Assembly: GCF_000341395.1 (NCBI RefSeq)
Contig: NC_020304.1
Location: 120,001-152,000, forward strand
From: Desulfocapsa sulfexigens DSM 10523
GTDB lineage: Bacteria > Desulfobacterota > Desulfobulbia > Desulfobulbales > Desulfocapsaceae
Length of the DNA: 32,000 bases
Direction: 5' to 3'
Both the position numbers and the translations under genes were made by a program. How positions within the stretch are numbered: position 1 is the first letter of the stretch; each line of letters begins with the position of its first letter. The notes beneath the pieces are model-generated. The model did not search any database and had not been told where the DNA came from. It worked only from the letters and a program-made list of their open reading frames with translations. Shown piece after piece: positions 4,865-31,181 of the stretch.

Positions 4865-4940
4865 GGCGGCGTAGCCAAGCGGCTAAGGCACTGGTCTGCA
4901 AAACCATGATTCAGCGGTTCAAATCCGCTCGCCGCCTCCA
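4865..4940 (+). tRNA. tRNA-Cys (anticodon GCA), with encoded CCA
   Basis: Manual cloverleaf fold. The acceptor stem GGCGGCG (4865-4871) pairs with CGCCGCC (4930-4936). The anticodon stem/loop is CTGGT-CTGCAAA-ACCAT, with U33 and GCA at 4898-4900. The T arm is AGCGG-TTCAAAT-CCGCT. The discriminator is U (4937) and CCA is at 4938-4940. Total length is 76 nt. Confidence 0.9.
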
Positions 4941-4950
4941 GTAATTGTAA

Positions 4951-4989
4951 GGCGATATTCTGAATATTTCAGGATATCGCCTTTTTTTA
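4951..4989 (+). terminator. Rho-independent terminator of tRNA-Cys
   Basis: A 14-bp stem, GGCGATATTCTGAA / TTCAGGATATCGCC, with one G-U pair and a 3-nt loop (4951-4981). It is followed directly by a T7 run (4982-4988). Confidence 0.75.
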
Positions 4990-5108
4990 TTACGCCGTCA
5001 AATATCTGTATCCCAGATAAAACTACCCTGTATAGCACAAAACGACTGTTCCGGCACCCCTTTCCTTCTTCTGAAATTCCCCTCAAAAAAATACCACAAA
5101 GTTAGAGT

Positions 5109-5136
5109 TTGACAGCGCTAAAATTCTGCCTATACT
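5109..5136 (+). promoter_or_regulatory. Likely sigma70-type promoter for the TPR/cysE/cysK operon
   Basis: A consensus -35 TTGACA (5109-5114), a 16-nt spacer, then -10 TATACT (5131-5136), about 60 nt upstream of the ATG at 5196. Confidence 0.45.
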
Positions 5137-5195
5137 TTTCCTGATAGGAAGATATTTTATATTTCTCCACCACTACGAAAAAGGAAAAATCGCTG

Positions 5196-5822
5196 ATGTC
5201 TGAAAAAAACAATACGGTAAAAAAAGAAACCCTGATTTACGCCCTTTTAATAGGATTTGTTGCAGGTTTTGTTGGTGGTGCCATATTTGCCGTTTACAAG
5301 CTTAGCCCTTCCACCCCGATTGCTGCCCCCGCTCAGGCACAGGCTCCGGACAACGCCCAGCAGCTGGAAAAACAGACAGCAGAGGCCATAGCCAACTTTG
5401 AGGCTGAAGTTACGATAAATCCCAACAATACTGAAGCCTGGATCCAGCTTGGCCACCTCTATTATGACTCTAACAAAGTACAGCAGGCTATCAAGGCGTA
5501 TACCAGGTCCCTTGAACTCCAACCCGGCAATGCGGATGTCTGGACTGATCTCGGGGTCATGTACAGAAGGAACAAACAGTCAGAAAAAGCCATTGAATCC
5601 TTCGACAAAGCCTTTTCGGTCAACCCCGGGCATGAACCTTCACGCCTCAACAAGGGTATTGTTCTGTTGTATGACTTTAATAATCCCGAAGGGGCCATTG
5701 CCGCCTGGGAAGAACTCCTCTCTATCAACCCACAGGCGAAGCTGAACAACGGCAAACCGTTGACTGAAGCTGTAGAGGATATCAGAAAAGAAATGAATAC
5801 CGCCATTCCGGCAAACAAATAG
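5196..5822 (+). CDS. Membrane-anchored tetratricopeptide (TPR) repeat protein
   Basis: 208 aa. An N-terminal hydrophobic helix (LIYALLIGFVAGFVGGAIFAVY) is followed by three or more TPR-like units (AWIQLGHLYYDSNKVQQAIKAYTRSLELQP, VWTDLGVMYRRNKQSEKAIESFDKAFSVNP, ...). AAGGA lies upstream of the ATG. Confidence 0.8.
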   Translation: MSEKNNTVKKETLIYALLIGFVAGFVGGAIFAVYKLSPSTPIAAPAQAQAPDNAQQLEKQTAEAIANFEAEVTINPNNTEAWIQLGHLYYDSNKVQQAIKAYTRSLELQPGNADVWTDLGVMYRRNKQSEKAIESFDKAFSVNPGHEPSRLNKGIVLLYDFNNPEGAIAAWEELLSINPQAKLNNGKPLTEAVEDIRKEMNTAIPANK

Positions 5823-5874
5823 GATGCTTTTTCTATAAACCTACTCTCACAATTCCCTTTGAAAAGGCCTCAAT

Positions 5875-6846
5875 ATGGCAAGCAACGACATTCACATTCC
5901 TGAACACTGTGAACACGAGACTCATACCACTGGTGCTCTCCACGACAAACTCCCACCAGTGGTGGAAACGCTGGTCGCTGCCTGGCAGACCGAGGACTGC
6001 TTTGATCATGTGGGGCCGGTTCCCATCCCCTCACACACCTCGATTATTAATATTATCTACCAGGTACGACAGATATTGTTTCCGGGCTATTTCACCAAGA
6101 CCAAAATCCATGGCTCCAATCTGGAATATTATCTCGGCAAGGAGACCACGGAGCTCTACGAACGATTATCCAGGGAGATCATCATGGCCATCCGCCATGA
6201 CTGCAGGCGTTCCAACCTCCCCTGTACCCATTGTGAAGAAAGAGGGCATCGCATGGCCCTCTCCTTTATTGAAAGCCTGCCAGGAATTTCAGCCCTGCTC
6301 TCCACCGATATTCGGGCAACACTTGCAGGAGACCCGGCAACAGCCAGTACGGATGAAGTTATCTTCTGTTACCCCGGCCTGCTTGCCACCTCCATCTTCA
6401 GAATGGCCCATGAGTTGTACCTCCTTGAAGTACCAATTATTCCCCGGATTATGACTGAACATGCCCACAGCCTCACGGGTATCGATATCCATCCGGGGGC
6501 AACCATTGGTCCCGGATTTTTCATTGACCATGGAACTGGCGTTGTTATTGGAGAGACAACTATCATTGGCTCAAATGTCAGGATCTATCAGGGCGTCACT
6601 CTGGGAGCTCTCTCGCTTCCAAAGGATGCAGGACGGGTGATGCGGGACGTTAAGCGCCATCCGACCATTGAAGATGACGTTATTATTTACGCCAACACCA
6701 CTATCCTTGGCGGGGACACAACCATTGGCGCCAGAACAGTTATCGGTGGAAACATCTGGCTCACCGAATCCGTTCCTTCGGACACCAGAGTTATACTCAA
6801 ACGACCAGAACTCCTCTATTCAGGAAGAAAGGGTGGAACATCATGA
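5875..6846 (+). CDS. cysE: Serine O-acetyltransferase (long-form)
   Basis: 323 aa. The left-handed beta-helix hexapeptide region [41 protein letters not shown]...[19 protein letters not shown] is characteristic of serine acetyltransferase. The stop overlaps the cysK start (ATGA). Confidence 0.9.
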
Positions 6847-7760
6847 GCCTGTCACTGACCGATACCACAGGAAATACCCCACTTATATCACTGTCCAAAA
6901 TCTCTGCTCACTGCTGTGCCCGTATTCTTGCAAAACAGGAATCCCGGAATCCCATGGGCAGCGTCAAGGATCGTATTGCACTTGCCATGATTGAAGCGGG
7001 GATACGGGGCGGGAAGATTACAGAAGGTACCACCGTCATCGAGGCAACTTCAGGAAATACCGGATTGGGGCTGGCCTTTGTCTGCGCAGAAAGAAATCTG
7101 CCATTGATTCTCACCATGCCGGAATCCATGTCGCTTGAACGAAGAGCTCTTCTCAAACATCTGGGAGCTCAGCTGGTTCTCACTCCTGCCGCAGAGGGAA
7201 TGAAAGGGGCCATCGCAGCTGCAGAAGAACTTCATCGGAAAACCCGGAACAGTTTTATGGTCAGACAGTTTGAAAATCCTGCCAACCCAGCCATTCACAA
7301 AAAAACCACTGCTGAGGAAATATGGCAGGCGACGGATGGCATAATCGATATTTTCGTAGCGGGAGTCGGAACCGGTGGAACCATAACGGGAGTGCTCGAG
7401 GGATTAAAAGAAAAGAATCCAGAGATTATTGGAGTGGCAGTGGAACCTGCTGACTCCCCAGTACTTTCAGGAGGAAGCCCTGGCCCCCATAAGATCCAGG
7501 GGATCGGAGCCGGCTTTATCCCTGCAATCCTGAAAACTGAGCTAATTGACCAGATCATTACAGTTACAAACGACGATGCCCTGGAAACCGCCAGAAAGCT
7601 TGCAAAACAGGAGGGGCTGCTGGTCGGAATCTCCTCGGGTGCAGCCATGTGGGCAGCGCTGCAACTGGCAAGAGATGAAAGAAACAAGAGTAAAACAATA
7701 GTCACTGTTCTGCCGGATACAGGAGAGCGGTATTTAAGTACCGACCTGATGATAAAGTAA
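6843..7760 (+). CDS. cysK: Cysteine synthase A (O-acetylserine sulfhydrylase)
   Basis: 305 aa. The PLP-lysine motif is NPMGSVKDR. Other family motifs are [16 protein letters not shown] and GISSGAA. Confidence 0.94.
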
Positions 7761-7931
7761 GCAGATGTTTCCCGAAAAAATGATGTGCTTCTCTATAAAA
7801 AACAAATCGTTTTTGGCCATCTTATTTCCATTGACTTTCCCTGCACCAGGACGTACATAGCACGTAAAGGAACATGAGTTGGCCGAAAAACCAACATAAA
7901 GGTAATATACTAAAATAATTGGAGAAAAAAA

Positions 7932-9236
7932 ATGCACACACAGGCAGACATTATTAATTTCTGGAGCCACATTCCAGACCTTTCAGACTCGCTTACTGAC
8001 GAAGATGAGGAACCTCCTGACGGTAGAATAAAAACCCTCGACGCAGACGCCTGTCTGCTCAAAATTCCCCCCCCAGCCACTCTTTTTTCTCTACCTTCAG
8101 AAGCATCATCAGTAAGTCCTTCTCAAAGAAACACATTTCGAAAAACCTTTTACCCAGGTGTTACAGCAAAACAGTGGAACAGCTGGCATTGGCAGGTTGC
8201 CAACCGTATCCGTCGTGGAGACCAGCTTGGGCGTTTTTTACAGCTTTCCAAAGACGAAGAACTGGCTGTCAATGGAACGGGAACTACTCTTCCGCTTTCC
8301 ATTACTCCATATTACCTGAGTCTTCTTAACCCTACAGATCCAGAGCATCCACTCCGCCGTTCCGTTGTTCCCACAACAGGTGAATTAACCCAGGGACCCG
8401 GTGAGGCTGACGATCCTCTTGGAGAAGACAACCAGAGTCCTGTGCCGGGTCTTGTTCACCGCTATCCTGACCGTGTTCTTTTTCTGGTACATGATTTTTG
8501 CTCAACCTATTGCCGTTACTGTACGAGATCGCGTGTTGTCGGGCATGGTACCATAAATCCGACAACAGCCAGATTCGAACGAATGCTTGACTACATTCGT
8601 CGTACAAAAACGATCCGTGACGTCCTTATTTCAGGTGGCGACCCACTGTTGCTGTCCGATGATCGCCTTGAATGGCTGTTGAGCAGTCTGCGTAAAATCC
8701 CTCACGTAGAGGTTATTCGCATCGGAACCAAGGTTCCTGCAGTGCTTCCGCAGCGTATCACCCCCGCACTGGTGAAAATGCTTCGCCGCTATCATCCTCT
8801 CTATATGAGCCTGCATTTCATCCATCCAGACGAATGCACTCCGGAAACCACCAAAGCTTGTGCACGCCTTGCAGGGGCAGGGATTCCACTCGGTTCGCAG
8901 ACCGTTCTCCTGCGCGGTATCAACGACACGGCGGAAACGATGAAGAGCTTAATGCACGGGGTGATGAAGATGCGGGTCCGTCCATACTATCTCTATCAGT
9001 GCGACCCCATCACCGGATCGGCTCATTTCAGGACATCGGTAAAGAAAGGACTGGATATCATCCAGGGATTAAGGGGTTTTACCAGTGGTTATGCCATTCC
9101 AACTTATGTCATTGATGCCCCTGGCGGAGGAGGAAAAATCCCCCTTCTACCGGATTCGGTTATAGGGAAAGAGGGCAGTGATCTCCTGCTGCGTAACTAC
9201 GAAGAGAGATGCTTCCGTTATCCCGATGTTGTCTGA
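7932..9236 (+). CDS. kamA: KamA-family radical SAM aminomutase, predicted lysine 2,3-aminomutase (forms beta-lysine)
   Basis: 434 aa, with a strong RBS (GGAG, then 7 nt, then ATG). The radical SAM cluster CSTYCRYCTRS is at 8499-8522. KamA hallmark blocks are WHWQVANRI, ITPYYLSL, SPVPGLVHRYPDRVLFLV, VRPYYLYQCD and YVIDAPGGGGK (the PLP lysine codon is 9135-9137). Confidence 0.9.
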   Translation: MHTQADIINFWSHIPDLSDSLTDEDEEPPDGRIKTLDADACLLKIPPPATLFSLPSEASSVSPSQRNTFRKTFYPGVTAKQWNSWHWQVANRIRRGDQLGRFLQLSKDEELAVNGTGTTLPLSITPYYLSLLNPTDPEHPLRRSVVPTTGELTQGPGEADDPLGEDNQSPVPGLVHRYPDRVLFLVHDFCSTYCRYCTRSRVVGHGTINPTTARFERMLDYIRRTKTIRDVLISGGDPLLLSDDRLEWLLSSLRKIPHVEVIRIGTKVPAVLPQRITPALVKMLRRYHPLYMSLHFIHPDECTPETTKACARLAGAGIPLGSQTVLLRGINDTAETMKSLMHGVMKMRVRPYYLYQCDPITGSAHFRTSVKKGLDIIQGLRGFTSGYAIPTYVIDAPGGGGKIPLLPDSVIGKEGSDLLLRNYEERCFRYPDVV

Positions 9237-9320
9237 CCGGAAAAATCAGTTACAGGCATCTCTGTCAAGTAACAGAGATATTTCCTATTCATATTTACGT
9301 TTCAAACGGGTTCAATACAG

Positions 9321-10307
9321 ATGAAGATAGGATTGACTTTTGATTTACGCTCCGCTTACCTGGAGATGGGATTCTCTGAGCTTGAAACAGCAGAATTCGA
9401 TCGTGACGACACTATTACAGCCATTGAAAATGCGCTGACCACACTGGGTCACAAATGTGAGCGAATCGGTCATGCCAGACAGCTTATGCAGGCCCTTACG
9501 GAGGGAAAACGCTGGGATCTGGTTTTTAATATCGCTGAAGGGATGTACGGCATAGGCCGTGAGGCCCAGATTCCGGCAATTTTGGATGTTTTCAATATTC
9601 CATATACTTTTTCGGATCCACTGGTCATGAGCCTGACTCTTCACAAGGGCATGACCAAACGGGTACTGCGGGATGCAAAAGTTGCCGTGAGTGATTTTCT
9701 GGTTGCTGAAAAGGGGTCTGAAGCTGCAGCAATATCCTTCGGAGGTCCATGGTTCATCAAACCAGTTGCCGAAGGAACGGGAAAGGGAATTGATCCCACC
9801 TCCATCGTCAGAGATAAAGCGGAGCTGCCGGGAGCCGTCGACCATTTGATAGAAAAGTTTAAGCAGCCTGTAATCATTGAACCCTACCTGCCCGGTCGGG
9901 AGTTCACCGTTGGTATAGTAGGAACGGGAAACGTGGCAAAAGTTCTGGGAACCATCGAGGTTGTCCTGCTACAGAACGCTGAGGAAGGTGTCTATTCCTA
10001 TGTCAACAAGGAGGAATGCGAAGAACGGGTGGAGTATCGGCTGGTTCACGGCAGTAAGGATCCCGTTGTCAAGGAGGCTGAAAACACAGCCCTTGAGGCC
10101 TGGCGTGTCCTTGGCTGCAGGGACGGAGGACGCGCGGATCTGCGCTGCAATGCAAACGGAAAACCGCTGTTTATGGAGGTCAACCCTCTTGCCGGTATTC
10201 ATCCGCAACATTCGGATCTTCCCATTCTCTGTACAATGCAAAACATTGATTACCTGAGTCTTGTGGAAATGATACTCACCTCAGCCTCCGCCAGGGTTAC
10301 ACTATGA
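9321..10307 (+). CDS. ATP-grasp ligase, D-alanine--D-alanine ligase family (substrates unknown)
   Basis: 328 aa. Ddl-like motifs are WFIKPVAEGTGKGI, IIEPYLPGREFTVGIVG and GRADLRCNANGKPLFMEVNPLAGI. The stop overlaps the next start (ATGA at 10304-10307). Confidence 0.85.
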   Translation: MKIGLTFDLRSAYLEMGFSELETAEFDRDDTITAIENALTTLGHKCERIGHARQLMQALTEGKRWDLVFNIAEGMYGIGREAQIPAILDVFNIPYTFSDPLVMSLTLHKGMTKRVLRDAKVAVSDFLVAEKGSEAAAISFGGPWFIKPVAEGTGKGIDPTSIVRDKAELPGAVDHLIEKFKQPVIIEPYLPGREFTVGIVGTGNVAKVLGTIEVVLLQNAEEGVYSYVNKEECEERVEYRLVHGSKDPVVKEAENTALEAWRVLGCRDGGRADLRCNANGKPLFMEVNPLAGIHPQHSDLPILCTMQNIDYLSLVEMILTSASARVTL

Positions 10308-11305
10308 ACTTTGCCGTTGTTCATAATTCCCTGGAAGCAAGTGACAGGCCGGATGCGATGGATGTGCTGACGCAGGTGGAGGCAGTAAAAAAAGCACTGA
10401 TCCAGCTTGGGCACCGGGTAAAGATTCTGGACTGTTCTCTGAATCTGGAGAAAATCAGTTGTGATCTCAAAGAGACGAAGACGGAACTGGTATTCAATCT
10501 GGTAGAATCCCTTGGAGGGCATGGTCGTCTGATTCATCTTTTCCCTGCACTGCTTGAGGTTTTACATCTTCCCTGTACAGGATCTTCAGCAGGAGCCATA
10601 TCCCTAAGCTCCAACAAAACTGAGGCCAAGAATTTACTGCGCAGTGCTGGCCTTCCCACCCCTGACTGGGCAGAACTTTTATCAAGTGGTGAAAAAAAAA
10701 TTAGCGGCAGCATTACGATGGATGCCACCTGGATCATAAAATCCCTATGGGAACATGCCTCACTGGGAATGAATGCAGACTCTCTGGTGCAACCCTCCAC
10801 GACAGATGAACTTTTCTCGCTCATGAATACCAAAAAGGACAGTCTGGGTGGTGCCTGCTTTGCCGAGCACTTTATTGACGGCCGGGAATTCAATATCTCC
10901 ATTCTTGCCGGAGAAAATGGCCCGGAAGTACTGCCTCCTGCCGAGATCCTCTTTGACAATTTCACCTCGGAGATGGCCAGGATTGTTGACTATAAGGCCA
11001 AGTGGGACGAATCATCCTTTGCCTACCAGCACACTCCGCGCAGCTTTGATTTCAGCTCTAAAGACAGAGTGATCCTTGAAAATCTAAAGGAGATCTCCCG
11101 GCAATGCTGGTTTCTTTTCAGGCTGAACGGCTATGCCCGGGTCGACTTCCGGGTCGACCCTGAAGGTAAACCCTGGATACTTGAGGTAAATGCCAACCCA
11201 TGTCTCTCACCGGATGCGGGGTTTTCCGCAGCACTGGCACGGGCCGGAATATCCTTCAGTGAAGCAATCCACCGAATTGTAGCAGATGTCCCTGTGACAG
11301 TTTGA
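10304..11305 (+). CDS. ATP-grasp ligase, D-alanine--D-alanine ligase family, paralogue (substrates unknown)
   Basis: 333 aa. Motifs are WIIKSLWEHASLGM, AEHFIDGREFNISILAG and YARVDFRVDPEGKPWILEVNANPCLSPDAG. It is clearly distinct from, but homologous to, the upstream gene. Confidence 0.85.
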   Translation: MNFAVVHNSLEASDRPDAMDVLTQVEAVKKALIQLGHRVKILDCSLNLEKISCDLKETKTELVFNLVESLGGHGRLIHLFPALLEVLHLPCTGSSAGAISLSSNKTEAKNLLRSAGLPTPDWAELLSSGEKKISGSITMDATWIIKSLWEHASLGMNADSLVQPSTTDELFSLMNTKKDSLGGACFAEHFIDGREFNISILAGENGPEVLPPAEILFDNFTSEMARIVDYKAKWDESSFAYQHTPRSFDFSSKDRVILENLKEISRQCWFLFRLNGYARVDFRVDPEGKPWILEVNANPCLSPDAGFSAALARAGISFSEAIHRIVADVPVTV

Positions 11306-11319
11306 AAGGAGTAATATAA

Positions 11320-13578
11320 ATGTTACGCGTACGCCGCATCTACGATGATGCACTGCCAGTCAACAAAGAGGAACTGCGTCAGGTAAAGGAAATCCTGCGT
11401 TCCAGATTCAGTGTTACCGATGAAAAGGAGATTGAATCCATAGGAGAAAAACTGCGAAATCCTTTCAAACAGCGATTCCGTACCATTCTCTTTGTGGCCG
11501 AAAGTGTGAAGGAGCGTGTGGATGGTTTTGCAATCCTGCTCCATGAACCCTTACTCTCGTTCACCTATCTTGACTGGATTGCCATAACGGCCAAGCGTGC
11601 AAGCTCGGGTATTGGCAGTGTGCTCTACGAACGGGTACGGCAGGAATCTGCGGCCCTGAAGGTGAAAGGTCTTTTCTTTGAATGTTTACCGGATTCTGAA
11701 ACCTTCTGTTCTGAACCGGAAATACTTCAGGAAAATAGTGCCAGACTCCGTTTTTATGAACAATACGGTGCCCGTCCCATCGTCAATACGGCCTACGAAA
11801 CCCCCATCAACCCGGATGACAGTTGTGCCCCGTTCCTGGTTTATGACGGTCTCGAGAACAAAAAACCACCCTCAAAGACCTTTGTCCGTAAGGCTGTGCG
11901 TGCTGTACTGGAACGAAAATACAGTGATATATGCTCGCCCGAGTATGTGGATACCGTTGTTTCCTCATTCAATGATGACCCGGTGCAACTTCGTCCATTT
12001 CTCTATGTGAAACCCGAAGTTGCCAGCAACACAGTGGAAAGCAGAAGTACAGAACAGATTGCTGTAGTGGTGAATGACCGTCACGACATTCACCACATCA
12101 ATGACAAGGGATACGTGGAGTCTCCGGTACGTGTCCGGTCAATCCTCAAGGAACTGGACAAAAGTGGATTATTTGTCCAGATAAAACCACGCCACTATGC
12201 CAACCATCATCTCCATCCGGTACACACTTCGGATCTGGTTGGATATCTGAAAAATGCCTGTGCAGACATGCCGGAGGGCAAGTCCCTCTATCCTTACATC
12301 TTCCCCATCCGCAATAAGATGCGACCGCCAAAGGAAAAATCTGTACTTGCCGGATATTACTGTATCGACACGTTCACGCCCATTAACAGAAATGCCTATC
12401 CCGCTGCCCGTCGAGCGGTTGACTGTGCCCTGACTGCAGCAGATGAAGTGCTTAATGGACGAAGAATAGCCTACGCTCTGGTCAGACCTCCAGGCCATCA
12501 CGCTGAAAGTGGCGCTTTTGGAGGATTCTGCTATTTCAACAACAGTGCAGTCGCCGCCCACTACCTGAGCGGATATGGCAGAACCGTAGTGCTTGACATC
12601 GACTATCATCACGGCAACGGTACCCAGGAGATTTTTTACCGCCGCGATGATGTTCTGACCATCTCCATCCACGGTCATCCAAGCTTCGCCTATCCCTATT
12701 TCAGTGGATTTGAAGAAGAAAAAGGTGAAGGCGAAGGCGAGGGTTTCAATCTCAACATCCCCCTTCCTGAATCGGTGGATGGGGTAAAATATCGCAGGGC
12801 GTTGCAGAAAGTTCTGGAAAGGGTCGAGGCTTTTAATCCAGCCTTTCTTGTCGTGGCCTTAGGCCTTGATCCTGCCAAAGGCGACCCGACAGGTACCTGG
12901 AGTCTGCTGGCAAAAGATTTTCAGGAAAACGGTAAAATGATAGGAGCTCTTGGGTTGCCGACCATCGTTATCCAGGAGGGCGGATACAAAACGCGAACCC
13001 TTGGTATCAACGCCATGCGGTTTTTCAAGGGTCTCAGCCTTGCCATTCAGCGATGGGCCGATTCACGCCATCCGGTGAAAAGCAAAATTCAAGGCATTGC
13101 CTACAGATACGAAGTCGAGGAGGCTGATCTGGAACGAGTAGCCAAACTTGCTTCCAGAACAGGCTTCTTCTCTGCGGAGGAAGTGGATGTAGCTGTGGAA
13201 CTGGTGCAGGAGAGACTGGAAAAAGGAGACGCCAGTGGCTATAATTTCATCATAGCAGAACATTACGGTCGCCTTGTCTCCTACACCTGTTATGGCGCAA
13301 TCCCCTGCACCCAGAGCGGACATGATCTCTACTGGATCGTTGTACATCCCGATTATCAGGGAAGAGGCGTTGGTAAAAGCATCCTCAAGGAAACCGAACA
13401 TGCCATCAGAAGTGGCGGCGGCGAGCGGATATACGCAGACACATCCCAACGACTGCAGTACGCCAGCACACGTGCCTTTTACGAAAACAACGGTTACCTC
13501 CAGGTGAGCCTGTTACCCGACTTCTATGGTCCCGATGATGGCAAGGTAGTCTACTGCAAAAATCTGCTGAAACAATAG
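11320..13578 (+). CDS. Tri-domain fusion: GNAT-like domain / HDAC-family (arginase-deacetylase fold) amidohydrolase / GNAT acetyltransferase
   Basis: 752 aa, with an AAAGGAG RBS. The middle domain carries the full HDAC/acetylpolyamine-amidohydrolase catalytic set: RPPGHHA, LDIDYHHGNGTQ, GEGEGEGFNLNIPLP, VVALGLDPAKGDP and IQEGGY. The C-terminal domain has the canonical GNAT motif A, IVVHPDYQGRGVGKSIL...FYENNGY. The N-terminal ~230 aa have a weaker GNAT-like motif (WIAITAKRASSGIGSVLYERV). Confidence 0.88.
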   Translation: MLRVRRIYDDALPVNKEELRQVKEILRSRFSVTDEKEIESIGEKLRNPFKQRFRTILFVAESVKERVDGFAILLHEPLLSFTYLDWIAITAKRASSGIGSVLYERVRQESAALKVKGLFFECLPDSETFCSEPEILQENSARLRFYEQYGARPIVNTAYETPINPDDSCAPFLVYDGLENKKPPSKTFVRKAVRAVLERKYSDICSPEYVDTVVSSFNDDPVQLRPFLYVKPEVASNTVESRSTEQIAVVVNDRHDIHHINDKGYVESPVRVRSILKELDKSGLFVQIKPRHYANHHLHPVHTSDLVGYLKNACADMPEGKSLYPYIFPIRNKMRPPKEKSVLAGYYCIDTFTPINRNAYPAARRAVDCALTAADEVLNGRRIAYALVRPPGHHAESGAFGGFCYFNNSAVAAHYLSGYGRTVVLDIDYHHGNGTQEIFYRRDDVLTISIHGHPSFAYPYFSGFEEEKGEGEGEGFNLNIPLPESVDGVKYRRALQKVLERVEAFNPAFLVVALGLDPAKGDPTGTWSLLAKDFQENGKMIGALGLPTIVIQEGGYKTRTLGINAMRFFKGLSLAIQRWADSRHPVKSKIQGIAYRYEVEEADLERVAKLASRTGFFSAEEVDVAVELVQERLEKGDASGYNFIIAEHYGRLVSYTCYGAIPCTQSGHDLYWIVVHPDYQGRGVGKSILKETEHAIRSGGGERIYADTSQRLQYASTRAFYENNGYLQVSLLPDFYGPDDGKVVYCKNLLKQ

Positions 13579-13756
13579 GCGAAGGGGATATGGTTGTCCC
13601 CAGGCTACCATACCTCCTGACCATATAATTATTGCCAGTGTTTTTTGAATCAGGTAGGGTCATGTCAGGTAAACATGTATTTTCATGGAGTTTCAATCCG
13701 TTGTAAGGATACCTGTACTCAATCCTTCTTCAACTCTCAACACGAGGAAAAGTCTG

Positions 13757-15187
13757 ATGGAAACATTCAGGACATATGACCCTGAGGATTATTACGACGA
13801 ATTAATCGACGACACCGGCAAACCCCGGCCTGGGGTTCAGTTACTGGTGGATAAGATTGAATCACTACCCGAAGGTGACCTGGCCATGCGCCAGAGAGAA
13901 GCGGAGGCCCTGCTCCTCAAAATGGGCATCACCTTCAATGTCTACGGCCGCGATGAGGGCACGGAAAAGATATTTCCCTTTGATATTATTCCCCGCATTG
14001 TTTCCGGCAGCGACTGGCAGCAGATAGAGAACGGCCTGAAACAGCGGATCTTTGCCCTGAATGAATTCCTCCAGGACATTTACAACGGCAAAAAGATCCT
14101 GAAGGATAAAATAATCCCTGAAGATCTTATACTCAGCAGCCGCACCTATCGCAAAGAATGTGAGGGCTTCACCCCTCCCCGCGGCATATGGTGCCATGTA
14201 ACGGGTACGGATCTGGTACGAGGCCGCAACGGAGAATTCTACGTACTGGAAGACAATCTCCGCTGCCCCTCGGGCGTCTCCTATGTCCTTGAAAACCGCC
14301 AGGTACTAAAACGGACATTCCCCCAGGTGTTTGAAGCCTCTCATGTGCGACCGGTGGACGACTATCCCACCAAACTCCTCGATATGCTTGAGTACCTGGC
14401 TCCAGACCACGTGCAATCACCCACCATTGGTGTTCTGACTCCCGGCATCTATAACAGCGCCTATTTCGAGCACTCTTTTCTCTCCCAGCAGATGGGAATA
14501 GAACTAGTGGAAGGCCGGGATCTTGTTGTCTCAGATGGATTTGTCCATATGTTGACCACCAAAGGCCTCAAACGTGTTGATGTCCTTTATCGTCGCATCG
14601 ATGATGATTTCATCGACCCGGATGTCTTTCGTCCCGATTCCATGCTTGGTGTCAAGGGGCTCATTGAAGTCTATAAAGCTGGTCGTATCGCCATGGCCAA
14701 TGCACCCGGAACTGGTATTGCCGACGACAAGGTGATTTACGCCTTCGTCCCCGAGATCATCAAGTATTACACAGGTGAGGATCCGATCCTGGCCAGTGTG
14801 CCCACCTATATCTGCGGCAACGATAAAGACCGCTCCTATGTTCTGGAACACCTCGATGAGCTGGTGGTCAAGGCCGCCAACGAGTCCGGTGGCTACGGCA
14901 TGCTGGTTGGCCCCCATTCAACCAGGGCAGAGCAGGCTGAGTTCGCCAAAAAAATAGTGGCCGAACCCCGTAACTACATGGCCCAACCCACCATTTCACT
15001 CTCCCGGGTACCTACCATTGTTGGCGACCGCATCGAAGGTCGCCATGTTGATCTGCGCCCCTATGTGTTGTACGGAGAGGAAATTTATGTACAGCCCGGT
15101 GGCCTTACCCGGGTGGCTCTTACCAAAGGGTCTCTGGTTGTCAACTCCTCCCAGGGTGGTGGAAGCAAAGACACCTGGGTACTGTAG
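13757..15187 (+). CDS. Circularly permuted ATP-grasp protein (COG2308-type), apparently catalytically intact
   Basis: The ORF track starts it at 13685 with no RBS. An in-frame ATG at 13757 (METFRTYDPEDYYDELID...) is preceded by GAGGAAAAG and gives a 476-aa protein. Family-typical blocks are YVLEDNLRCPSGVSYVLENR, VLTPGIYNSAYFEHSFL, VVKAANESGGYGMLVGP and LVVNSSQGGGSKDTWVL. Confidence 0.87.
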   Translation: METFRTYDPEDYYDELIDDTGKPRPGVQLLVDKIESLPEGDLAMRQREAEALLLKMGITFNVYGRDEGTEKIFPFDIIPRIVSGSDWQQIENGLKQRIFALNEFLQDIYNGKKILKDKIIPEDLILSSRTYRKECEGFTPPRGIWCHVTGTDLVRGRNGEFYVLEDNLRCPSGVSYVLENRQVLKRTFPQVFEASHVRPVDDYPTKLLDMLEYLAPDHVQSPTIGVLTPGIYNSAYFEHSFLSQQMGIELVEGRDLVVSDGFVHMLTTKGLKRVDVLYRRIDDDFIDPDVFRPDSMLGVKGLIEVYKAGRIAMANAPGTGIADDKVIYAFVPEIIKYYTGEDPILASVPTYICGNDKDRSYVLEHLDELVVKAANESGGYGMLVGPHSTRAEQAEFAKKIVAEPRNYMAQPTISLSRVPTIVGDRIEGRHVDLRPYVLYGEEIYVQPGGLTRVALTKGSLVVNSSQGGGSKDTWVL

Positions 15188-15213
15188 ACGATTTATATAG
15201 AGGAGAAATAAAG

Positions 15214-16212
15214 ATGCTTAGCCGTGTAGCCAACTCAATTTACTGGATGTGTCGATATATCGAACGGGCGGAAAATGTAGCCCGCTTTATCAGTGTCAAC
15301 CTCAACCTGTTACTCGATATGCCCTCAGAAAAGGGCAAACACTGGGAACCGCTGGTACTGACAACAGGTGATCAGGAACTGTTCGAAAAAAAGTATCAGA
15401 ACTATACCAAAGAGGCGGTAATCGAATTCCTTGCCTTTGACCGGAGTTACCCCAATTCCATTATCAGCTCCCTTGCGGGAGCAAGGGAAAACGGTCGGTC
15501 CATCCGTGAAATCATCTCTTCTGAAATGTGGGAACATTTAAACAATTTCTATCTGGAACTGACCGATGTAAAAAGCCAGACCATGGCTCTTGAGGATCCG
15601 CACCGCTTTTTCAAAATCATTCAGATGCGCAGTCACCTGTTCACCGGACTGCTGGACTCGACCATGAGCCATGGGGAAGCCTGGAACTTTGCCCGCATCG
15701 GTATGATGCTGGAACGGGCAGACAAAACCTCCAGAATCCTTGACGTCAAATACTTTATGCTGTTGCCGCACCCGGATCTGGTGAACAGTCCGATAGATAA
15801 CATTCAGTGGACATCGGTGCTCAAATCTGCCAGTGCTTTTGAAATGTATCGTAAGGAACATCATCGGATAACCCCGCATAAGGTGGCAAGCTTCCTGATT
15901 TTTGACAGCCAGTTTCCTCGTTCCATCCGCCATTGTATTTCCAAGGCCGATATCTGTCTGCATAGGATTGCCGGCTCACCGGAGGGGTCCGCAAGCAATC
16001 TTGCCGAGAAAAAGCTGGGCCGTCTCAAAGCTGATCTTGAATACACTGACATTGATGAAGTGGTCAAATCTGGTATGCATGAGTACCTGGACGATCTGCA
16101 GAGTCGGATCAACCAGATTGATGAAGTCATCGGAACCACATTCTTCAATCTCAGGCCCCTGATCGATGTATCAACAAACGACCAGCAGCAGTCCACGACC
16201 ACCAACAACTGA
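15214..16212 (+). CDS. Alpha-E domain protein (COG2307-type)
   Basis: 332 aa, with an AGGAG RBS. The N-terminus MLSRVANSIYWMCRYIERAENVARF is the hallmark opening of alpha-E domain proteins. The rest appears all-helical, including GEAWNFARIGMMLERADKTSRILDVKY. Confidence 0.87.
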   Translation: MLSRVANSIYWMCRYIERAENVARFISVNLNLLLDMPSEKGKHWEPLVLTTGDQELFEKKYQNYTKEAVIEFLAFDRSYPNSIISSLAGARENGRSIREIISSEMWEHLNNFYLELTDVKSQTMALEDPHRFFKIIQMRSHLFTGLLDSTMSHGEAWNFARIGMMLERADKTSRILDVKYFMLLPHPDLVNSPIDNIQWTSVLKSASAFEMYRKEHHRITPHKVASFLIFDSQFPRSIRHCISKADICLHRIAGSPEGSASNLAEKKLGRLKADLEYTDIDEVVKSGMHEYLDDLQSRINQIDEVIGTTFFNLRPLIDVSTNDQQQSTTTNN

Positions 16213-16290
16213 ATGAAAAAGTAATCAATAAACATGGGGCCGCGATATACCCGGCAACCATGCTCTTGATTCACAATAAAAGGAATACTC

Positions 16291-19200
16291 ATGGGAATCC
16301 ATGTTGCCCTGAACCACAAGACCTCATACCATTACGACAAGCGTATCACCCTCTCTCCTCAGATTGTCCGTCTGCGCCCCGCTCCTCACTGCCGGACCCC
16401 CATTCTGAGCTACTCCATGACGGTAACTCCTGAAAAACATTTTATCAACTGGCAGCAGGATCCATTCAGTAACTACCTGGGCCGCCTGGTATTTCCCGAC
16501 AAAACAGACATTTTTGAGGTGGAGATCGATCTGGTGGCGGAGATGATTATCATCAACCCCTTTGATTATTTCCTGGAGCCTGACGCCGAATCATTTCCCT
16601 TTATTTATGAACCGGCTCTCAAACTGGACCTTGCTCCCTATCTGGCCAGAGAAAAGGCTGGGAAAAAGCTCCAGGAGTACATAAACAAGATAGAGCTCAA
16701 ACCAAGACAGACCATCGATTTCCTGGTGGATCTGAACATGAAGCTGAGTCATGATATCAGCTATCTTATCCGCATGGAACCGAACGTGCAAAGCTGTGAA
16801 AAGACCCTCACTCTTGGCAGCGGCTCATGCAGGGATTCTGCCTGGTTGCTGGTCAATATCCTGCGTCATCTCGGTCTGGCTGCCCGTTTCGTTTCCGGTT
16901 ACCTGATCCAGTTGAAACAGGATATCAAATCCCTGGACGGTCCATCGGGAACAGAAGTTGACTTCACCGATCTCCATGCCTGGACAGAGGTTTACATTCC
17001 AGGGGCTGGTTGGGTGGGTATGGATCCAACCTCCGGACTTTTCGCCGGAGAAGGACACATTCCCCTGGCCTGCTCGCCTGAACCACAGAGTGCAGCTCCC
17101 ATCACCGGAGGCCTCGAATTATGTGAAGTTGACTTCAGTCACACCATGAGTGTGACAAGAATTCACGAAGCACCCCGCTCCACCCGCCCCTACCCCGAAG
17201 AAGTCTGGAGAGAGATCGTTGAATTGGGAGAACAGGTTGATCAGAAACTGACCGATGGCGATGTCCGTCTGACCATGGGAGGGGAACCCACATTTGTTTC
17301 AATCGACGATATGGATGGCGCTCAATGGAACACCGACGCCCTTGGAGAAGAAAAACTGGAGCTTTCCGGAATTCTCATTAAGGAACTGCGAAAGAAATGG
17401 GCTCCCGGAGGATTTCTCCATCATGGCCAGGGCAAATGGTATCCGGGAGAGCCCCTGCCCCGCTGGGCCATGGGCTGCTATTGGCGAAAAGACGGTAAAC
17501 CTGTCTGGAAGGATGACCAGTGGCTGGCCGATGCCTCCAAAGATTATGGTTTTGATGCTGGAGATGCCAAACTTTTCATCGAGACACTGGCAGACAATCT
17601 GAGGGTGAGTCAGCGCTATATACGGGAAAGTTACGAAGACATCTTCTATTACCTGTACAAAGAGCAACGGTTGCCGGTAAATGTGGATCCTGCAGATCCA
17701 AAGCTTGACAGTGCTCTGGAACGCGCTCATATGGTACGAGCCTTTCAGCGAGGACTGGGATCAGTGGTCGGCTACGTCCTCCCTCTGCAGCATGGCTCCT
17801 GGAAGAGTGGCCCCTGGCCTTTCCGCGATGGACGGATGTTCCTTGTACCCGGTGATTCTCCTGCCGGCCTGCGCCTCCCCCTGGCCTCTCTGCCATGGGT
17901 AGCCAAAGAGGACATCCAGGAGGGGCACCCCCTGGATCCAATGATAGACAGAGAGCCCTTACCCGAACTGCATGAAAATCAGAAAGTTGTGGAAGGACAG
18001 GCTGTAGCAGTGACAGGTGACAATGTTCATATTCAGCCTGAACCCTATGCTGACCCGGAGCCCGTCAAGGGAGAATCTGCTGCCTGGCTGGTACGCACAG
18101 CCCTCTGCGTGCAGCCCCGGGAAGGACGCCTCTATATATTTATGCCACCGGTGGAATCTCTGGAGGGATACCTTGAGCTGGTGTCCATCGTCGAAGCAAC
18201 TGCCGCACAGACTCAGTTGCCGGTAATCATCGAAGGATATACACCGCCCTTTGACCCGCGCCTCCAGAATCTGAAAATCACCCCGGATCCCGGAGTCATT
18301 GAAGTGAATATCCAGCCCATGCACAGCTGGCAGGAGCTGGTTGAATGTACCACCACCCTTTACGACACTGCCCGAGAGGCACGTCTGGGTACTGAAAAGT
18401 TCATGATTGACGGCCGACACACCGGCACCGGTGGTGGTAATCATATCGTCATCGGTGGATCCACCCCTGGAGACAGCCCGTTTCTACGAAGGCCGGATCT
18501 GCTTCGCAGTTTTGTCACCTTCTGGAATAATCATCCGTCCCTCTCTTTTCTTTTTTCCGGACTCTTTATCGGCCCCACCAGCCAGCAGCCGCGAATTGAT
18601 GAGGCCCGCCATGACAGCCTCTATGAACTGGAAATCGCCTTTGCTGAACTGGACAGACAGACAGGTTCGGATCAGCCCTGCCCTCCCTGGCTGGTGGATC
18701 GAATTTTCCGCCACCTGCTGGTGGACGTTACCGGTAACACCCACCGGGCCGAATTCTGTATCGATAAGCTCTATTCACCGGACAGTGCTAGCGGAAGACT
18801 GGGCCTCCTTGAATTTCGCGCCTTTGAGATGCCTCCCCACGCCCGTATGAGCCTCGCCCAGCAGCTGCTGTTGCGTAGCTTTGTTGCCTGGTTCTGGGAG
18901 ACGCCCTATCGTCAGAGTCTGGTGCACTGGGGAACACGGCTCCATGATCGCTTTATGCTGCCCCAGCCGGTACGGGATGATTTTGCTGATGTCCTGAATA
19001 TTCTGAACCGGGCTGGCTTCCCTGTCTCGATGGATTTTTTCCATCCTCATTTCGAATTTCGCTTTCCCATTTACGGCAAAGTAACGGTTCAGGGCATGGA
19101 GATTGAACTGCGCCAGGCTCTTGAGCCCTGGCACGTATTGGGCGAAGAACCAGGCGGTGGTGGCACTGTCCGCTACGTTGACGGCTCACTGGAGAGGCTC

Positions 19201-19611
19201 CAGGTCAAAGTCTCCGGTATGACAGGAGAACGCTATATTATCACCTGCAACGGTCGTCGAGTTCCTCTGCAGCCAACCACAGTTGAAGGCGTATTTGTTG
19301 CCGGTATCCGCTTCCGTGCCGGAAAACCTCCATCCTGCCTCCATCCTACCATTGATGTTCATGCTCCCCTCACCATTGATCTCTTCGACACCTGGTCCAA
19401 CAGGTCCGTGGGTGGCTGTACCTATCATGTGGAGCACCCAGGCGGACGAAACTCTGAAACACTTTCTGTCAACTCCTATGAGGCGGAAGGACGGCGTAAC
19501 GCTCGTTTCGTTCCCAACCGGCACAGTCCCGTTCGCCCGACAGCTATTCCTGCAGATGAAATGAACCCATCTTTTCCATATACTCTTGATTTGCGCCGCC
19601 ACATCGGATAA
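16291..19611 (+). CDS. Large transglutaminase-like cysteine peptidase fused to a DUF2126-type predicted (circularly permuted COOH-NH2 ligase) amidoligase domain
   Basis: 1106 aa. The N-terminal Bact_transglu_N-like region reads HVALNHKTSYHYDKRITLSPQIVRLRP. The transglutaminase core has an intact Cys-His-Asp triad (GSGSCRDSAWLLV, FTDLHAWTEVYIPGAGWVGMDPTSG). The ~800-aa C-terminal extension matches my recollection of the COG4196/DUF2126 family. Confidence 0.88.
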   Translation: MGIHVALNHKTSYHYDKRITLSPQIVRLRPAPHCRTPILSYSMTVTPEKHFINWQQDPFSNYLGRLVFPDKTDIFEVEIDLVAEMIIINPFDYFLEPDAESFPFIYEPALKLDLAPYLAREKAGKKLQEYINKIELKPRQTIDFLVDLNMKLSHDISYLIRMEPNVQSCEKTLTLGSGSCRDSAWLLVNILRHLGLAARFVSGYLIQLKQDIKSLDGPSGTEVDFTDLHAWTEVYIPGAGWVGMDPTSGLFAGEGHIPLACSPEPQSAAPITGGLELCEVDFSHTMSVTRIHEAPRSTRPYPEEVWREIVELGEQVDQKLTDGDVRLTMGGEPTFVSIDDMDGAQWNTDALGEEKLELSGILIKELRKKWAPGGFLHHGQGKWYPGEPLPRWAMGCYWRKDGKPVWKDDQWLADASKDYGFDAGDAKLFIETLADNLRVSQRYIRESYEDIFYYLYKEQRLPVNVDPADPKLDSALERAHMVRAFQRGLGSVVGYVLPLQHGSWKSGPWPFRDGRMFLVPGDSPAGLRLPLASLPWVAKEDIQEGHPLDPMIDREPLPELHENQKVVEGQAVAVTGDNVHIQPEPYADPEPVKGESAAWLVRTALCVQPREGRLYIFMPPVESLEGYLELVSIVEATAAQTQLPVIIEGYTPPFDPRLQNLKITPDPGVIEVNIQPMHSWQELVECTTTLYDTAREARLGTEKFMIDGRHTGTGGGNHIVIGGSTPGDSPFLRRPDLLRSFVTFWNNHPSLSFLFSGLFIGPTSQQPRIDEARHDSLYELEIAFAELDRQTGSDQPCPPWLVDRIFRHLLVDVTGNTHRAEFCIDKLYSPDSASGRLGLLEFRAFEMPPHARMSLAQQLLLRSFVAWFWETPYRQSLVHWGTRLHDRFMLPQPVRDDFADVLNILNRAGFPVSMDFFHPHFEFRFPIYGKVTVQGMEIELRQALEPWHVLGEEPGGGGTVRYVDGSLERLQVKVSGMTGERYIITCNGRRVPLQPTTVEGVFVAGIRFRAGKPPSCLHPTIDVHAPLTIDLFDTWSNRSVGGCTYHVEHPGGRNSETLSVNSYEAEGRRNARFVPNRHSPVRPTAIPADEMNPSFPYTLDLRRHIG

Positions 19612-19669
19612 CTATGCCAGATCAAACAAGGTGTACTACTATTAAAGAAACAACGAGACCTCCAGCTGT

Positions 19670-22198: not shown

Positions 22199-23067
22199 GA
22201 TACCGCGTAAGCCATAAAACAACCTACCGCTATTCGGAACCTGCCTCCCTTTCTCAAAACGAGGTATTTCTCCATCCCCGTGAAATTGAAACTCAACGGG
22301 TAATCGAAAGCAGACTGGCCATCGATCCAAAACCGCAATACCAGCACCGTCGTACAGATTACTTTGGCAATATCGCGCAGGTATTCATGGTACAGCATCC
22401 CCACAACGAGCTGACCATGACCGCAACCAGCATTGTGGAAACAGCCCTTCCCGTCACGCCATTAAGCACTCCTCCCTGGGAAAGCGTCGTCCAGCGACTG
22501 GCTGCCCCCGTGCGCCAGTTACCGGACCTTGAAGCCTACCAGTTCGTCTTTGCCAGCCCTCTGATCAGCGTCGCTCCCGGGGTTATGGAATATGCCAGGC
22601 CTTCCTTCCCGCCGGGTACTCCCGTACTGGACGGAGCCATGAACCTGATGGGACGAATATTTAAAGAATTCAGCTACGACACCTCGGCCACCACCGTGGA
22701 TACCACCGTAGAACAACTGCTGGCAGAACGAAAAGGGGTCTGTCAGGATTTTGCCCATTTCGCCATCAGCTGTCTACGATCCATGGGACTGGCGGCACGC
22801 TATGTGAGCGGCTACCTGGAAACCATGCCACCACCGGGTAAACCCAAGATGATCGGAGCCGATGAATCCCACGCCTGGCTCTCTCTCTACATTCCGGACA
22901 CAGGCTGGGTAGACCTGGACCCCACGAACAACATTATTCCAGGTGAAAATCATATCGTTCTTGCCTGGGGGCGGGATTATGGTGATGTCACCCCCGTGAA
23001 AGGAGTGGTAATGGGGGGCGGAATTCACACCCTTTCCCTGATGGTGGATGTTGCCGTACACTCCTGA
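22195..23067 (+). CDS. Transglutaminase-like cysteine peptidase (COG1305-type)
   Basis: 290 aa. The Bact_transglu_N-like start is MRYRVSHKTTYRYSEPASLSQNEVFLHPRE. The catalytic triad context is KGVCQDFAHFAISCLRSMGLAARYVSGY and ESHAWLSLYIPDTGWVDLDPTN. Confidence 0.9.
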   Translation: MRYRVSHKTTYRYSEPASLSQNEVFLHPREIETQRVIESRLAIDPKPQYQHRRTDYFGNIAQVFMVQHPHNELTMTATSIVETALPVTPLSTPPWESVVQRLAAPVRQLPDLEAYQFVFASPLISVAPGVMEYARPSFPPGTPVLDGAMNLMGRIFKEFSYDTSATTVDTTVEQLLAERKGVCQDFAHFAISCLRSMGLAARYVSGYLETMPPPGKPKMIGADESHAWLSLYIPDTGWVDLDPTNNIIPGENHIVLAWGRDYGDVTPVKGVVMGGGIHTLSLMVDVAVHS

Positions 23068-27898: not shown

Positions 27899-28088
27899 AC
27901 TTTATCCCACCCGGACTGATCGCCAAGGATATATTACTGCAATACATACAGGAAGAGTGAGTTACAGCGTAACATACATTCTGCACCCAGACGGCCCTCC
28001 CTCTAATCATTTCCACATGCAGGAGCAGAACTCTTTATTCTATGGGATGCACTGTTTATTTGAAAGAAAAAAAACTGCCACAGTAGTA

Positions 28089-28637: not shown

Positions 28638-28647
28638 AACACCTCGC

Positions 28648-31166: not shown

Positions 31167-31181
31167 ATCATTCTTTTATAT

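Follow-up and report, generated by a model that had tools for sequence, protein, structure and literature searches.

We analyzed a stretch of 32,000 nucleotides (nt) from Desulfocapsa sulfexigens DSM 10523 (NC_020304.1, positions 120,001-152,000, forward strand), which is called here the window in its entire length and to which all coordinates refer unless a locus is named. Positions 7932-13578 carry four open reading frames (ORFs), all on the + strand, which encode a KamA-family aminomutase, two ATP-grasp ligases termed G1 and G2, and a fusion protein composed of a GNAT-like domain, a deacetylase domain and a GNAT acetyltransferase domain (Table 1). The first-pass annotation of this DNA had described four tightly linked genes with one ATGA overlap and one gap of 14 nt, and we located the ORFs, the overlap and the gap exactly as described. 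The stop codon of G1 and the start codon of G2 share the ATGA ('ctATGAac', 10304-10307), the 14 nt between G2 and the fusion gene contain an AAGGAG ribosome-binding site, and 84 nt containing a weak hairpin separate kamA from G1. Translation of the four ORFs is coupled. The GC content is uniform along the region, and a D. sulfexigens DSM 10523 protein matches G1 at 100% identity.

Table 1. Coordinates of the kamA module in the window, with the domains of the fusion protein and the noncoding elements (aa, amino acids; PLP, pyridoxal 5'-phosphate; SAM, S-adenosylmethionine; UTR, untranslated region)
Feature	Coordinates	Strand	Description
KamA-family radical-SAM/PLP aminomutase, predicted L-lysine 2,3-aminomutase	7932..9236	+	434 aa; TIGR00238, LAM_C, Radical_SAM
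G1, Ddl-fold ATP-grasp carboxylate-amine ligase with acidic pocket	9321..10307	+	328 aa; Dala_Dala_lig_C, E 6e-23
G2, Ddl-fold ATP-grasp ligase of another subfamily, enlarged pocket	10304..11305	+	333 aa; Dala_Dala_lig_C, E 1.5e-18
Fusion protein, whole	11320..13578	+	752 aa
Divergent N-terminal domain, probably GNAT fold (residues 1-250)	11320..12069	+	always travels with the deacetylase
Zn-dependent deacetylase domain, acetylpolyamine-amidohydrolase-like (residues 266-568)	12115..13023	+	Hist_deacetyl, E 1.5e-76
C-terminal GNAT acetyltransferase domain, core GNAT of the module	13093..13578	+	Acetyltransf_7, E 2.9e-17, 63 bits vs 27
Upstream spacer, probable promoter and 5' UTR	7761..7931	+	171 nt between cysK and kamA
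Weak hairpin with T-rich tail in the kamA-G1 spacer	9258..9279	+	terminator-like scan; 8 pairs, 3 GC

Among curated models, KamA passes the cutoff of TIGR00238 only (345 bits, cutoff 199) and remains below every curated equivalog cutoff. Its best equivalog score in NCBIfam is with AblA (475 bits, cutoff 525), and the models for glutamate 2,3-aminomutase (426 bits, cutoff 650), arginine 2,3-aminomutase (380 bits, cutoff 600) and EpmB (245 bits, cutoff 369) score lower. Compared with the lysine 2,3-aminomutase (LAM) of Clostridium subterminale (2A5H, 458 bits), the residues C190/C194/C197, R199, D358, D395 and K402 of KamA correspond to C125/C129/C132, R134, D293, D330 and K337. In the clostridial enzyme R134 binds the carboxylate and K337 is the PLP lysine. 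D293 and D330 reportedly bind the epsilon-ammonium group of lysine, as described by Ruzicka and Frey, and are said to be replaced in glutamate 2,3-aminomutase. The CxxxCxxC motif, the PLP lysine and the equivalents of R134, D293 and D330 are 100% conserved in 55 KamA orthologues. Because the residues of a lysine-type active site are all kept, the formation of beta-lysine is a well-supported first step, and we strongly infer from the sequence that KamA produces beta-lysine from L-lysine. KamA has a nonconserved N-terminal extension of about 75 aa and lacks the last approximately 50 aa of the clostridial enzyme.

G1 and G2, which are 26% identical to one another, resemble D-alanine--D-alanine ligases (Ddl) in overall architecture. 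An AlphaFold (AF2) model of G1 was of high quality (pLDDT 88, pTM 0.88), and its nearest solved structures are all Ddl (TM 0.72-0.78, 19-27% identity). Scores with the best Ddl hidden Markov model, NF002378 (cutoff 243), are 151 bits for G1 and 116 bits for G2, and both proteins are far below the cutoffs of every Ddl and Van model in NCBIfam. We numbered pocket positions on Escherichia coli DdlB through an alignment of approximately 22-25% identity, with a DdlB sequence that has the expected 306 aa and is consistent with the HMMER alignment. DdlB K97, K144, E180, K215, R255, D257, E270 and N272 are kept in both ligase families, namely as K109, K147, E187, K230, R271, D273, E286 and N288, invariant in 82 orthologues of G1, and as K105, K146, E188, K233, R279, D281, E294 and N296, invariant in 73 orthologues of G2. 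Thus G1 and G2 share with Ddl and Van enzymes the residues for ATP/Mg binding and acyl-phosphate catalysis.

The D-Ala pockets, by contrast, are altered throughout both families. In G1, DdlB H63 is replaced by E73 (100%), E68 by R80 (100%), Y216 by E231 (85%) and L282 by D299 (99%), which introduces three acidic side chains into the pocket, and S281 is kept. In G2, Y216 is replaced by W234, G276 by C300 and L282 by G306 (all 100%), S281 mostly by A, and S150 by A. The set of residues that binds D-Ala in DdlB (E15, S150, Y216, S281 and L282) is reproduced in neither ligase, and the N-terminal GGxSxEREVS motif containing E15 is absent from both. On this alignment, G1 and G2 are ATP-grasp enzymes with intact catalytic residues and lost D-Ala pockets. 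Since these pocket changes are invariant within the families and the scores are below the model cutoffs, a standard role in cell-wall synthesis is excluded, and we rejected the identification of G1 or G2 as a cell-wall Ddl. Their genes are also linked to kamA and not, as in the case of Ddl, to mur or fts genes. The acidic pocket of G1 suggests a cationic substrate, for which beta-lysine is the obvious candidate, and the larger and less polar second site of G2 may accept a bulkier substrate, probably the product of G1.

The domains of the fusion protein differ in how clearly they can be assigned. The first-pass annotation had read the protein as GNAT/HDAC/GNAT, and the deacetylase and the C-terminal GNAT are clear. 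The N-terminal GNAT is weak, with 21 bits (E 3.6e-4) against Acetyltransf_7, below the gathering score of 27. An hhalign comparison of the N-terminal domain with the C-terminal GNAT gave an E value of 2.7e-4 at a probability of 42%, covering motifs A and B, and the best matches of its profile in the PDB are two GNATs (NAGS GNAT, E 0.047; 2r7h, E 0.15). A single-sequence AF2 model of this domain was uninformative (pLDDT 41).

The C-terminal GNAT has the acetyl-CoA motif Q-x-x-G-x-G conserved in 60 orthologues. Its nearest structure is 2r7h (E 2e-34) from Desulfovibrio desulfuricans G20, for which the depositors' name, 'putative D-alanine N-acetyltransferase', is a prediction; a stand-alone orthologue lies inside the module of Desulfovibrio psychrotolerans. 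Of the named NCBIfam models, RimI matches the domain best (E 5e-9), though with a score far short of its cutoff, and the AblB model is not among the NCBIfam matches of the fusion protein.

The best PDB matches of the deacetylase domain are the acetylpolyamine amidohydrolases 6phr (E 1e-74), 9gkz (PsApaH, E 8e-74) and 3q9b (Mycoplana ApaH, E 1e-58). With this group of enzymes (cluster 4, including MrApaH, PsApaH and PA1409), it shares the RPPGHH and EGGY motifs and the catalytic and zinc-binding residues, whereas the PIS position reads PTG and the domain is here fused between two GNAT-type domains and encoded in a beta-lysine operon. Acetyl-specific cluster-4 polyamine deacetylases, which have very negative active sites and prefer cationic substrates, are marked by RPPGHH and EGGY (PMC11532494). 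GNAT fusions or aminomutase contexts are not mentioned in this survey of bacterial deacylases (PMC11532494). All of 34 orthologues of the deacetylase domain retain the HH dyad, the D/H/D zinc ligands and the catalytic Tyr. In N-epsilon-acetyl-beta-lysine the ammonium group is four carbons from the acetamide nitrogen, as in acetylputrescine and N8-acetylspermidine. Because this spacing is the same, an acetylated beta-lysyl compound is a plausible substrate of the deacetylase.

In Desulfobacterota, the fusion protein and G1 have thousands of homologues with an identity of at least 65%, and the same four genes are present in the same order within entirely different flanks in Desulfococcus multivorans and one further genome. 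In a scan of one genome per species with an 11-sequence alignment as the query, G1 relatives were encoded at no fewer than 589 loci. We compared synteny, architecture and neighbors in the best approximately 80 of these, in all 82 related loci, using tblastn with the window proteins. The best 80 G1 loci are 55-81% identical and are distributed over at least 8 phyla, their hosts belonging to Desulfobacterota, Acidobacteriota (Thermoanaerobaculia), Planctomycetota, Bacteroidota, Fibrobacterota, Lentisphaerota, Myxococcota, Krumholzibacteriia, WOR-3 and Woeseia.

KamA, G1 and G2 are collinear in nearly all of the 82 loci, and G2 is followed by the C-terminal GNAT where the contig extends far enough, with a few exceptions. 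The full architecture of KamA, G1, G2, N-terminal domain, deacetylase and C-terminal GNAT was found in 29 loci, and another 24 have KamA, G1, G2 and only the C-terminal GNAT, there a stand-alone gene after G2. The remaining loci are mostly cut by contig ends, and a handful are without a part despite sufficient room. The four-gene unit of the first-pass annotation is thus to be divided: KamA, G1, G2 and the C-terminal GNAT are the conserved core, and the N-terminal domain and deacetylase make up an accessory unit that roughly half of the loci possess. In D. psychrotolerans (L084) and in L085, the N-terminal domain and the deacetylase form one gene apart from that of the GNAT.

Gene fusions connect the members of the module. 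Our search across 1.8 billion representative proteins yielded 600 matches below 1e-30, and many of the proteins matching G1 have 650-730 aa with two matched stretches. G1-G2 fusions exist in both orders: P0241 has halves 45% identical to G1 and 42% identical to G2, and P0262 and P0276 each possess two ATP-grasp modules, of which the one in the C-terminal half matches G1 best. KamA is joined to G1 in P0259 (KamA part 61% identical), G2 to the GNAT in L083, and a GNAT to the deacetylase in the window protein itself. In Pfam, G1 homologues that are extended at the N-terminus have no informative extra domains besides KamA, a second ATP-grasp and CxxCxxCC. Because the fusions chain along the gene order, they support a single pathway that leads from KamA through G1, G2 and the GNAT, in this order, to the deacetylase where one is present. 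The recurring gene order in most of the 82 loci and these mutual fusions together place the linkage far beyond chance.

When we clustered all flanking ORFs of the related loci, the only other widely conserved neighbor was a Cys-rich CxxCxxCC protein (PF03692, YkgJ/FliB-type) of about 176 aa. Its gene separates those of KamA and G1 in at least 10 loci (L008, L011, L016, L019, L027, L032, L040, L047, L057 and L079), but is missing from the window, and in P0251 the protein is fused to G1. The family includes the FliB proteins, which are lysine N-methylases. The CxxCxxCC protein could possibly donate electrons to the radical-SAM enzyme or carry out an extra tailoring step.

Some loci differ in gene content. 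At 553-10416 of L084, the genes for a sigma-54 activator, KamA, G1, G2, an ArsP_1-type permease and a DUF1980 protein are followed by those for the stand-alone C-terminal-type GNAT and a 628-aa protein of N-terminal domain and deacetylase; a perfect sigma-54 promoter (TGGCACGCCCATTGCT) precedes kamA, and the permease pair is the only transporter seen within any version of the module examined. At 10978-14636 of L079 (Planctomycetaceae), which may represent a divergent version of the pathway, a gene resembling FAD-dependent amine/amino-acid oxidases takes the place of G2, and a class IV aminotransferase is encoded nearby. In D. multivorans (L001/L002, 3794-5873), an alanine racemase and a class IV (D-amino-acid) aminotransferase are encoded divergently upstream of kamA; this arrangement was not seen in other loci, but would become relevant if one of the ligation partners were a D-amino acid.

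Upstream of kamA, 17 of 72 related loci have a sigma-54-type promoter (TGGCAC-N5-TTGCW with no more than 2 mismatches, GG and GC being kept), where approximately 5 were expected from background density, an excess of about threefold. Examples of the -24/-12 match are at position 7883 of L011, 6490 of L024, 2163 of L042 and 8553 of L044, and NtrC-type activators adjoin the module in L080, L081 and L084. This suggests that expression is regulated rather than constitutive in part of the family. The window spacer upstream of kamA has neither a sigma-54 consensus nor a match to a lysine riboswitch or any other Rfam family, and Rfam matched nothing in the window besides a tRNA-Cys (4865-4940). A promoter and terminator scan of the window gave a count not above shuffled expectation; the hairpin in the kamA-G1 spacer is possibly an attenuator of read-through or an RNA processing site.

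The first-pass annotation had also stated that the module differs from the four known contexts of KamA-type enzymes and that kamDE, kdd, kce, epmA and efp are not visible in the window. Both statements are borne out. None of these genes is among the window ORFs, and none of them, nor kal, is among the conserved neighbors in the 82 loci. A lysine fermentation cluster is thereby ruled out, as there is no kamDE, kdd, kce or kal in either set. EpmAB-type beta-lysylation of elongation factor P (EF-P) is ruled out by the EpmB score of 245 bits against a cutoff of 369 and by the lack of epmA and efp among window ORFs and conserved neighbors. We also ruled out AblAB, given the two interposed ligases and the lack of a match to the AblB model. 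A streptothricin-type pathway failed the comparison as well, as set out further below.

The use of a KamA paralogue in EF-P beta-lysylation nevertheless raises the question of whether the ATP-grasp enzymes attach beta-lysine to a protein, to peptidoglycan or to a lipid precursor, with the GNAT and the deacetylase acting on protein lysines. Some ATP-grasp enzymes do modify proteins (RimK, TTL) or peptidoglycan precursors, and the best named match of the C-terminal GNAT, RimI, is consistent with such a role. In addition, deacetylation by the polyamine deacetylase PsApaH extends to some peptides and to one protein (PMC11532494). However, KamA scores much lower with EpmB than with AblA or the clostridial LAM, and no locus examined has a linked efp, epmA, mur or ribosomal-protein gene. 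Moreover, the architecture of G1 and G2 is that of small-molecule Ddl rather than of the RimK or TTL type, and the loss of the D-Ala-binding positions excludes the standard cell-wall role. Modification of a protein or of the cell envelope is thus improbable.

An antibiotic was among the products considered by the first-pass annotation. Streptothricins, viomycin and related drugs contain beta-lysine as a building block, and the known mechanism of resistance is N-acetylation of the beta-lysine amine. A pair of enzymes that acetylates and deacetylates would fit a prodrug logic, in which acetylation of a cationic, streptothricin-type beta-lysine antibiotic confers self-resistance and deacetylation activates it. 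By contrast, the conserved neighbors in the 82 loci include no exporter, immunity, regulator, nonribosomal peptide synthetase (NRPS) or tailoring gene, the single permease pair of Desulfovibrio being an insertion in one locus only. The features of a streptothricin-type pathway, NRPS-like beta-lysine oligomerization and genes for streptolidine or sugar, are absent from the window ORFs and from the conserved neighbors, and PADLOC gave no defense-system matches. The flanks differ in every lineage, and a distribution over at least 8 phyla and 589 or more species, with 55-81% identity in the best 80, is unlike that of clusters for specialized metabolites. We give the antibiotic reading very little credence, and the self-resistance proposal is disfavored.

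The core of the earlier proposal, beta-lysine supply followed by two ATP-dependent amide-forming steps and a pair of acetylating and deacetylating enzymes, is strengthened by the synteny, the fusions and the active sites. We favor, with moderate confidence, a self-contained small-molecule pathway that produces an N-acetylated, beta-lysine-containing amide, similar to a di- or tripeptide, whose acetylation is reversible. In this pathway KamA would convert L-lysine to beta-lysine (3,6-diaminohexanoate), a step strongly supported by the identity of its active site. G1 would then use ATP to couple beta-lysine to a partner via an acyl-phosphate, its acidic pocket being suited to a cationic substrate, and G2, with its enlarged second-substrate pocket, may add a further unit to the larger G1 product. 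The C-terminal GNAT is predicted to N-acetylate a remaining free amine and so to lower the positive charge of the product. In Desulfocapsa, and likewise in roughly half of the remaining lineages, the deacetylase would remove the acetyl group again, so that reversible acetylation could act as a switch for activation, turnover or control of charge. The product would most likely serve in the cytoplasm, as a solute or polyamine-like cation, rather than as an antibiotic.

Several observations weigh against this pathway. Although the contigs provide room, the GNAT is absent in L030, L035 and L037, KamA is not nearby in L041, L045 and L051, and G2 is absent in L079 and L063. The assignment of the N-terminal domain as a GNAT is weak, and our reading of the pockets depends on a distant alignment (about 22-25% identity) to DdlB. 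The ligation partners are not readable from sequence. The occurrence of the module in freshwater, peat and digester organisms also weakens the case for a purely osmotic role.

As a subcase of the beta-lysine amide pathway, the module could strictly serve a compatible solute, that is, an elaborated AblAB system producing a neutral or zwitterionic dipeptide that contains N-acetyl-beta-lysine and is comparable to N-acetylglutaminylglutamine amide (NAGGN). AblA and AblB, which form N-epsilon-acetyl-beta-lysine in methanogens, Chlorobi and some Bacillus, likewise combine a lysine 2,3-aminomutase followed by a GNAT in a small, self-contained operon; in the module, however, two ATP-grasp ligases stand between aminomutase and GNAT, a deacetylase is often attached, the AblA cutoff is not reached and the AblB model is missed. 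Only classical ablAB is mentioned in the Pelobacter genome paper. The D. sulfexigens operon is as small and self-contained as ablAB, ectABC and asnO-ngg, and AblA is the best NCBIfam match of its KamA. In the Ngg/AsnO pathway, a GNAT and an ATP-grasp ligase make an N-acetylated dipeptide osmolyte. The G2-GNAT fusion of L083 mirrors the GNAT/ATP-grasp protein Ngg of NAGGN synthesis, whereas the module differs in its ATP-grasp subfamily, its two ligases, the absence of an amidotransferase and the supply of substrate by a radical-SAM aminomutase.

A compatible solute would be synthesized upon osmotic or thermal stress and degraded by the deacetylase upon down-shift. Acetylation neutralizes charge, and D. 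sulfexigens and many of the other hosts are from marine sediment. On the other hand, KamA scores 475 bits where the AblA cutoff is 525, no AblB-type GNAT model is matched, and the module is also present in genomes from peat, freshwater lakes, soil and digesters. The sigma-54 promoters and NtrC-type activators of some loci are also not specifically osmotic. We therefore regard a strict compatible-solute pathway as possible, but do not favor it.

The deacetylase and the ligases could alternatively be interpreted in terms of a polyamine-like polycation. G1 and G2 would build a beta-lysyl-diamine or, acting iteratively with two active sites as in cyanophycin synthetase, oligo- or poly-beta-lysine, and the GNAT and the deacetylase would control the charge and level of this product as SpeG and ApaH do for polyamines. 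The E value of 1e-74 with polyamine deacetylases, the shared RPPGHH and EGGY motifs, the acidic substitutions in the G1 pocket and the frequent fusion of G1 and G2 into a protein of about 700 aa are consistent with this possibility, and sigma-54/NtrC-type regulation in some loci fits nitrogen-linked metabolism. However, the deacetylase is missing from about half of the loci and so does not define the core, no gene for a decarboxylase or for diamine supply is linked, polymerase activity is not known for Ddl-type enzymes, and the gatekeeper motif PIS is altered to PTG. A polycation made in this way thus appears rather unlikely. Somewhat speculatively, one might envisage a hitherto unrecognized class of beta-lysine oligoamides, either a 'pseudo-polyamine' or short oligo-beta-lysine, made by paired or fused G1-G2 in anaerobes of at least eight phyla, with the GNAT and deacetylase as a switch of charge and activity; we offer this as a tentative idea only.

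For the preferred pathway to an acetylated beta-lysine amide, there is a further parallel in pyrrolysine biosynthesis (PylB/PylC/PylD), in which a radical-SAM lysine mutase feeds a Ddl-type ATP-grasp ligase that joins the rearranged amino acid to an amine. The logic of a radical-SAM lysine mutase followed by an ATP-grasp ligase is shared, but PylB is not a PLP enzyme of the KamA type, and the module has a GNAT and a deacetylase instead of PylD. The PylC model was not among the NCBIfam matches listed for G1 (best 25 of 32) or G2. By analogy, the module would resemble AblAB extended by ATP-grasp ligation in the manner of NAGGN synthesis or PylC and by an acetylation switch in the manner of SpeG and ApaH. 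No description of a beta-lysine ligase-acetylation cluster was found in the literature searched, whose reach did not include the amidoligase survey of Iyer et al. 2009. All of the enzyme families are known, and it is their combination, a radical-SAM lysine aminomutase with two dedicated non-Ddl ATP-grasp ligases, a GNAT and, in some loci, a polyamine-type deacetylase, that is apparently undescribed.

Other genes of the window lie on both sides of the module. Upstream of kamA, 4865-7760 (+) contains genes for tRNA-Cys (GCA) and a TPR protein, cysE (5875-6846) and cysK (6843-7760), the last two overlapping by 4 nt. Within 5 kb of kamA, cysE-cysK was found in one other locus only, L011 (Desulfatitalea), and we dropped the idea of a link to a low-molecular-weight thiol because the adjacency recurs only there and is taken to be coincidental. 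Directly downstream, 13685-23067 (+) comprises two consecutive modules of circularly permuted (CP) ATP-grasp, Alpha-E and transglutaminase proteins. The first consists of separate CP_ATPgrasp and Alpha-E genes followed by a gene for a 1106-aa transglutaminase and DUF2126 'putative amidoligase' protein, and the second of a CP_ATPgrasp-Alpha-E fusion and a 290-aa transglutaminase. A link of these genes to the kamA module was likewise dropped, as the arrangement recurs only in L012, on the opposite strand. At 23124-27898 (-), a neighboring pair of hybrid sensor histidine kinases that carry receiver domains is encoded. Beyond it, up to 31991 (-), are genes for a PEMT-like methyltransferase, a flavin amine oxidase-family protein and a pair of radical-SAM proteins, of which one has a SPASM domain. 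This cluster (23124-31991) is unrelated to the kamA module and uncharacterized-looking.

If the proposed pathway is correct, hundreds of species, from at least eight phyla that predominate in anoxic sediments and soils, would have in common a lysine-derived metabolite that has so far not been recognized, perhaps a compatible solute of a new kind or a substitute for polyamines. The ATP-grasp enzymes would gain two new specificities, both for the ligation of beta-amino acids, and the name 'D-alanine--D-alanine ligase' given to thousands of proteins would need to be corrected. The pathway would also bear on the osmotic and nitrogen physiology of sulfate reducers, Planctomycetota and Bacteroidota.

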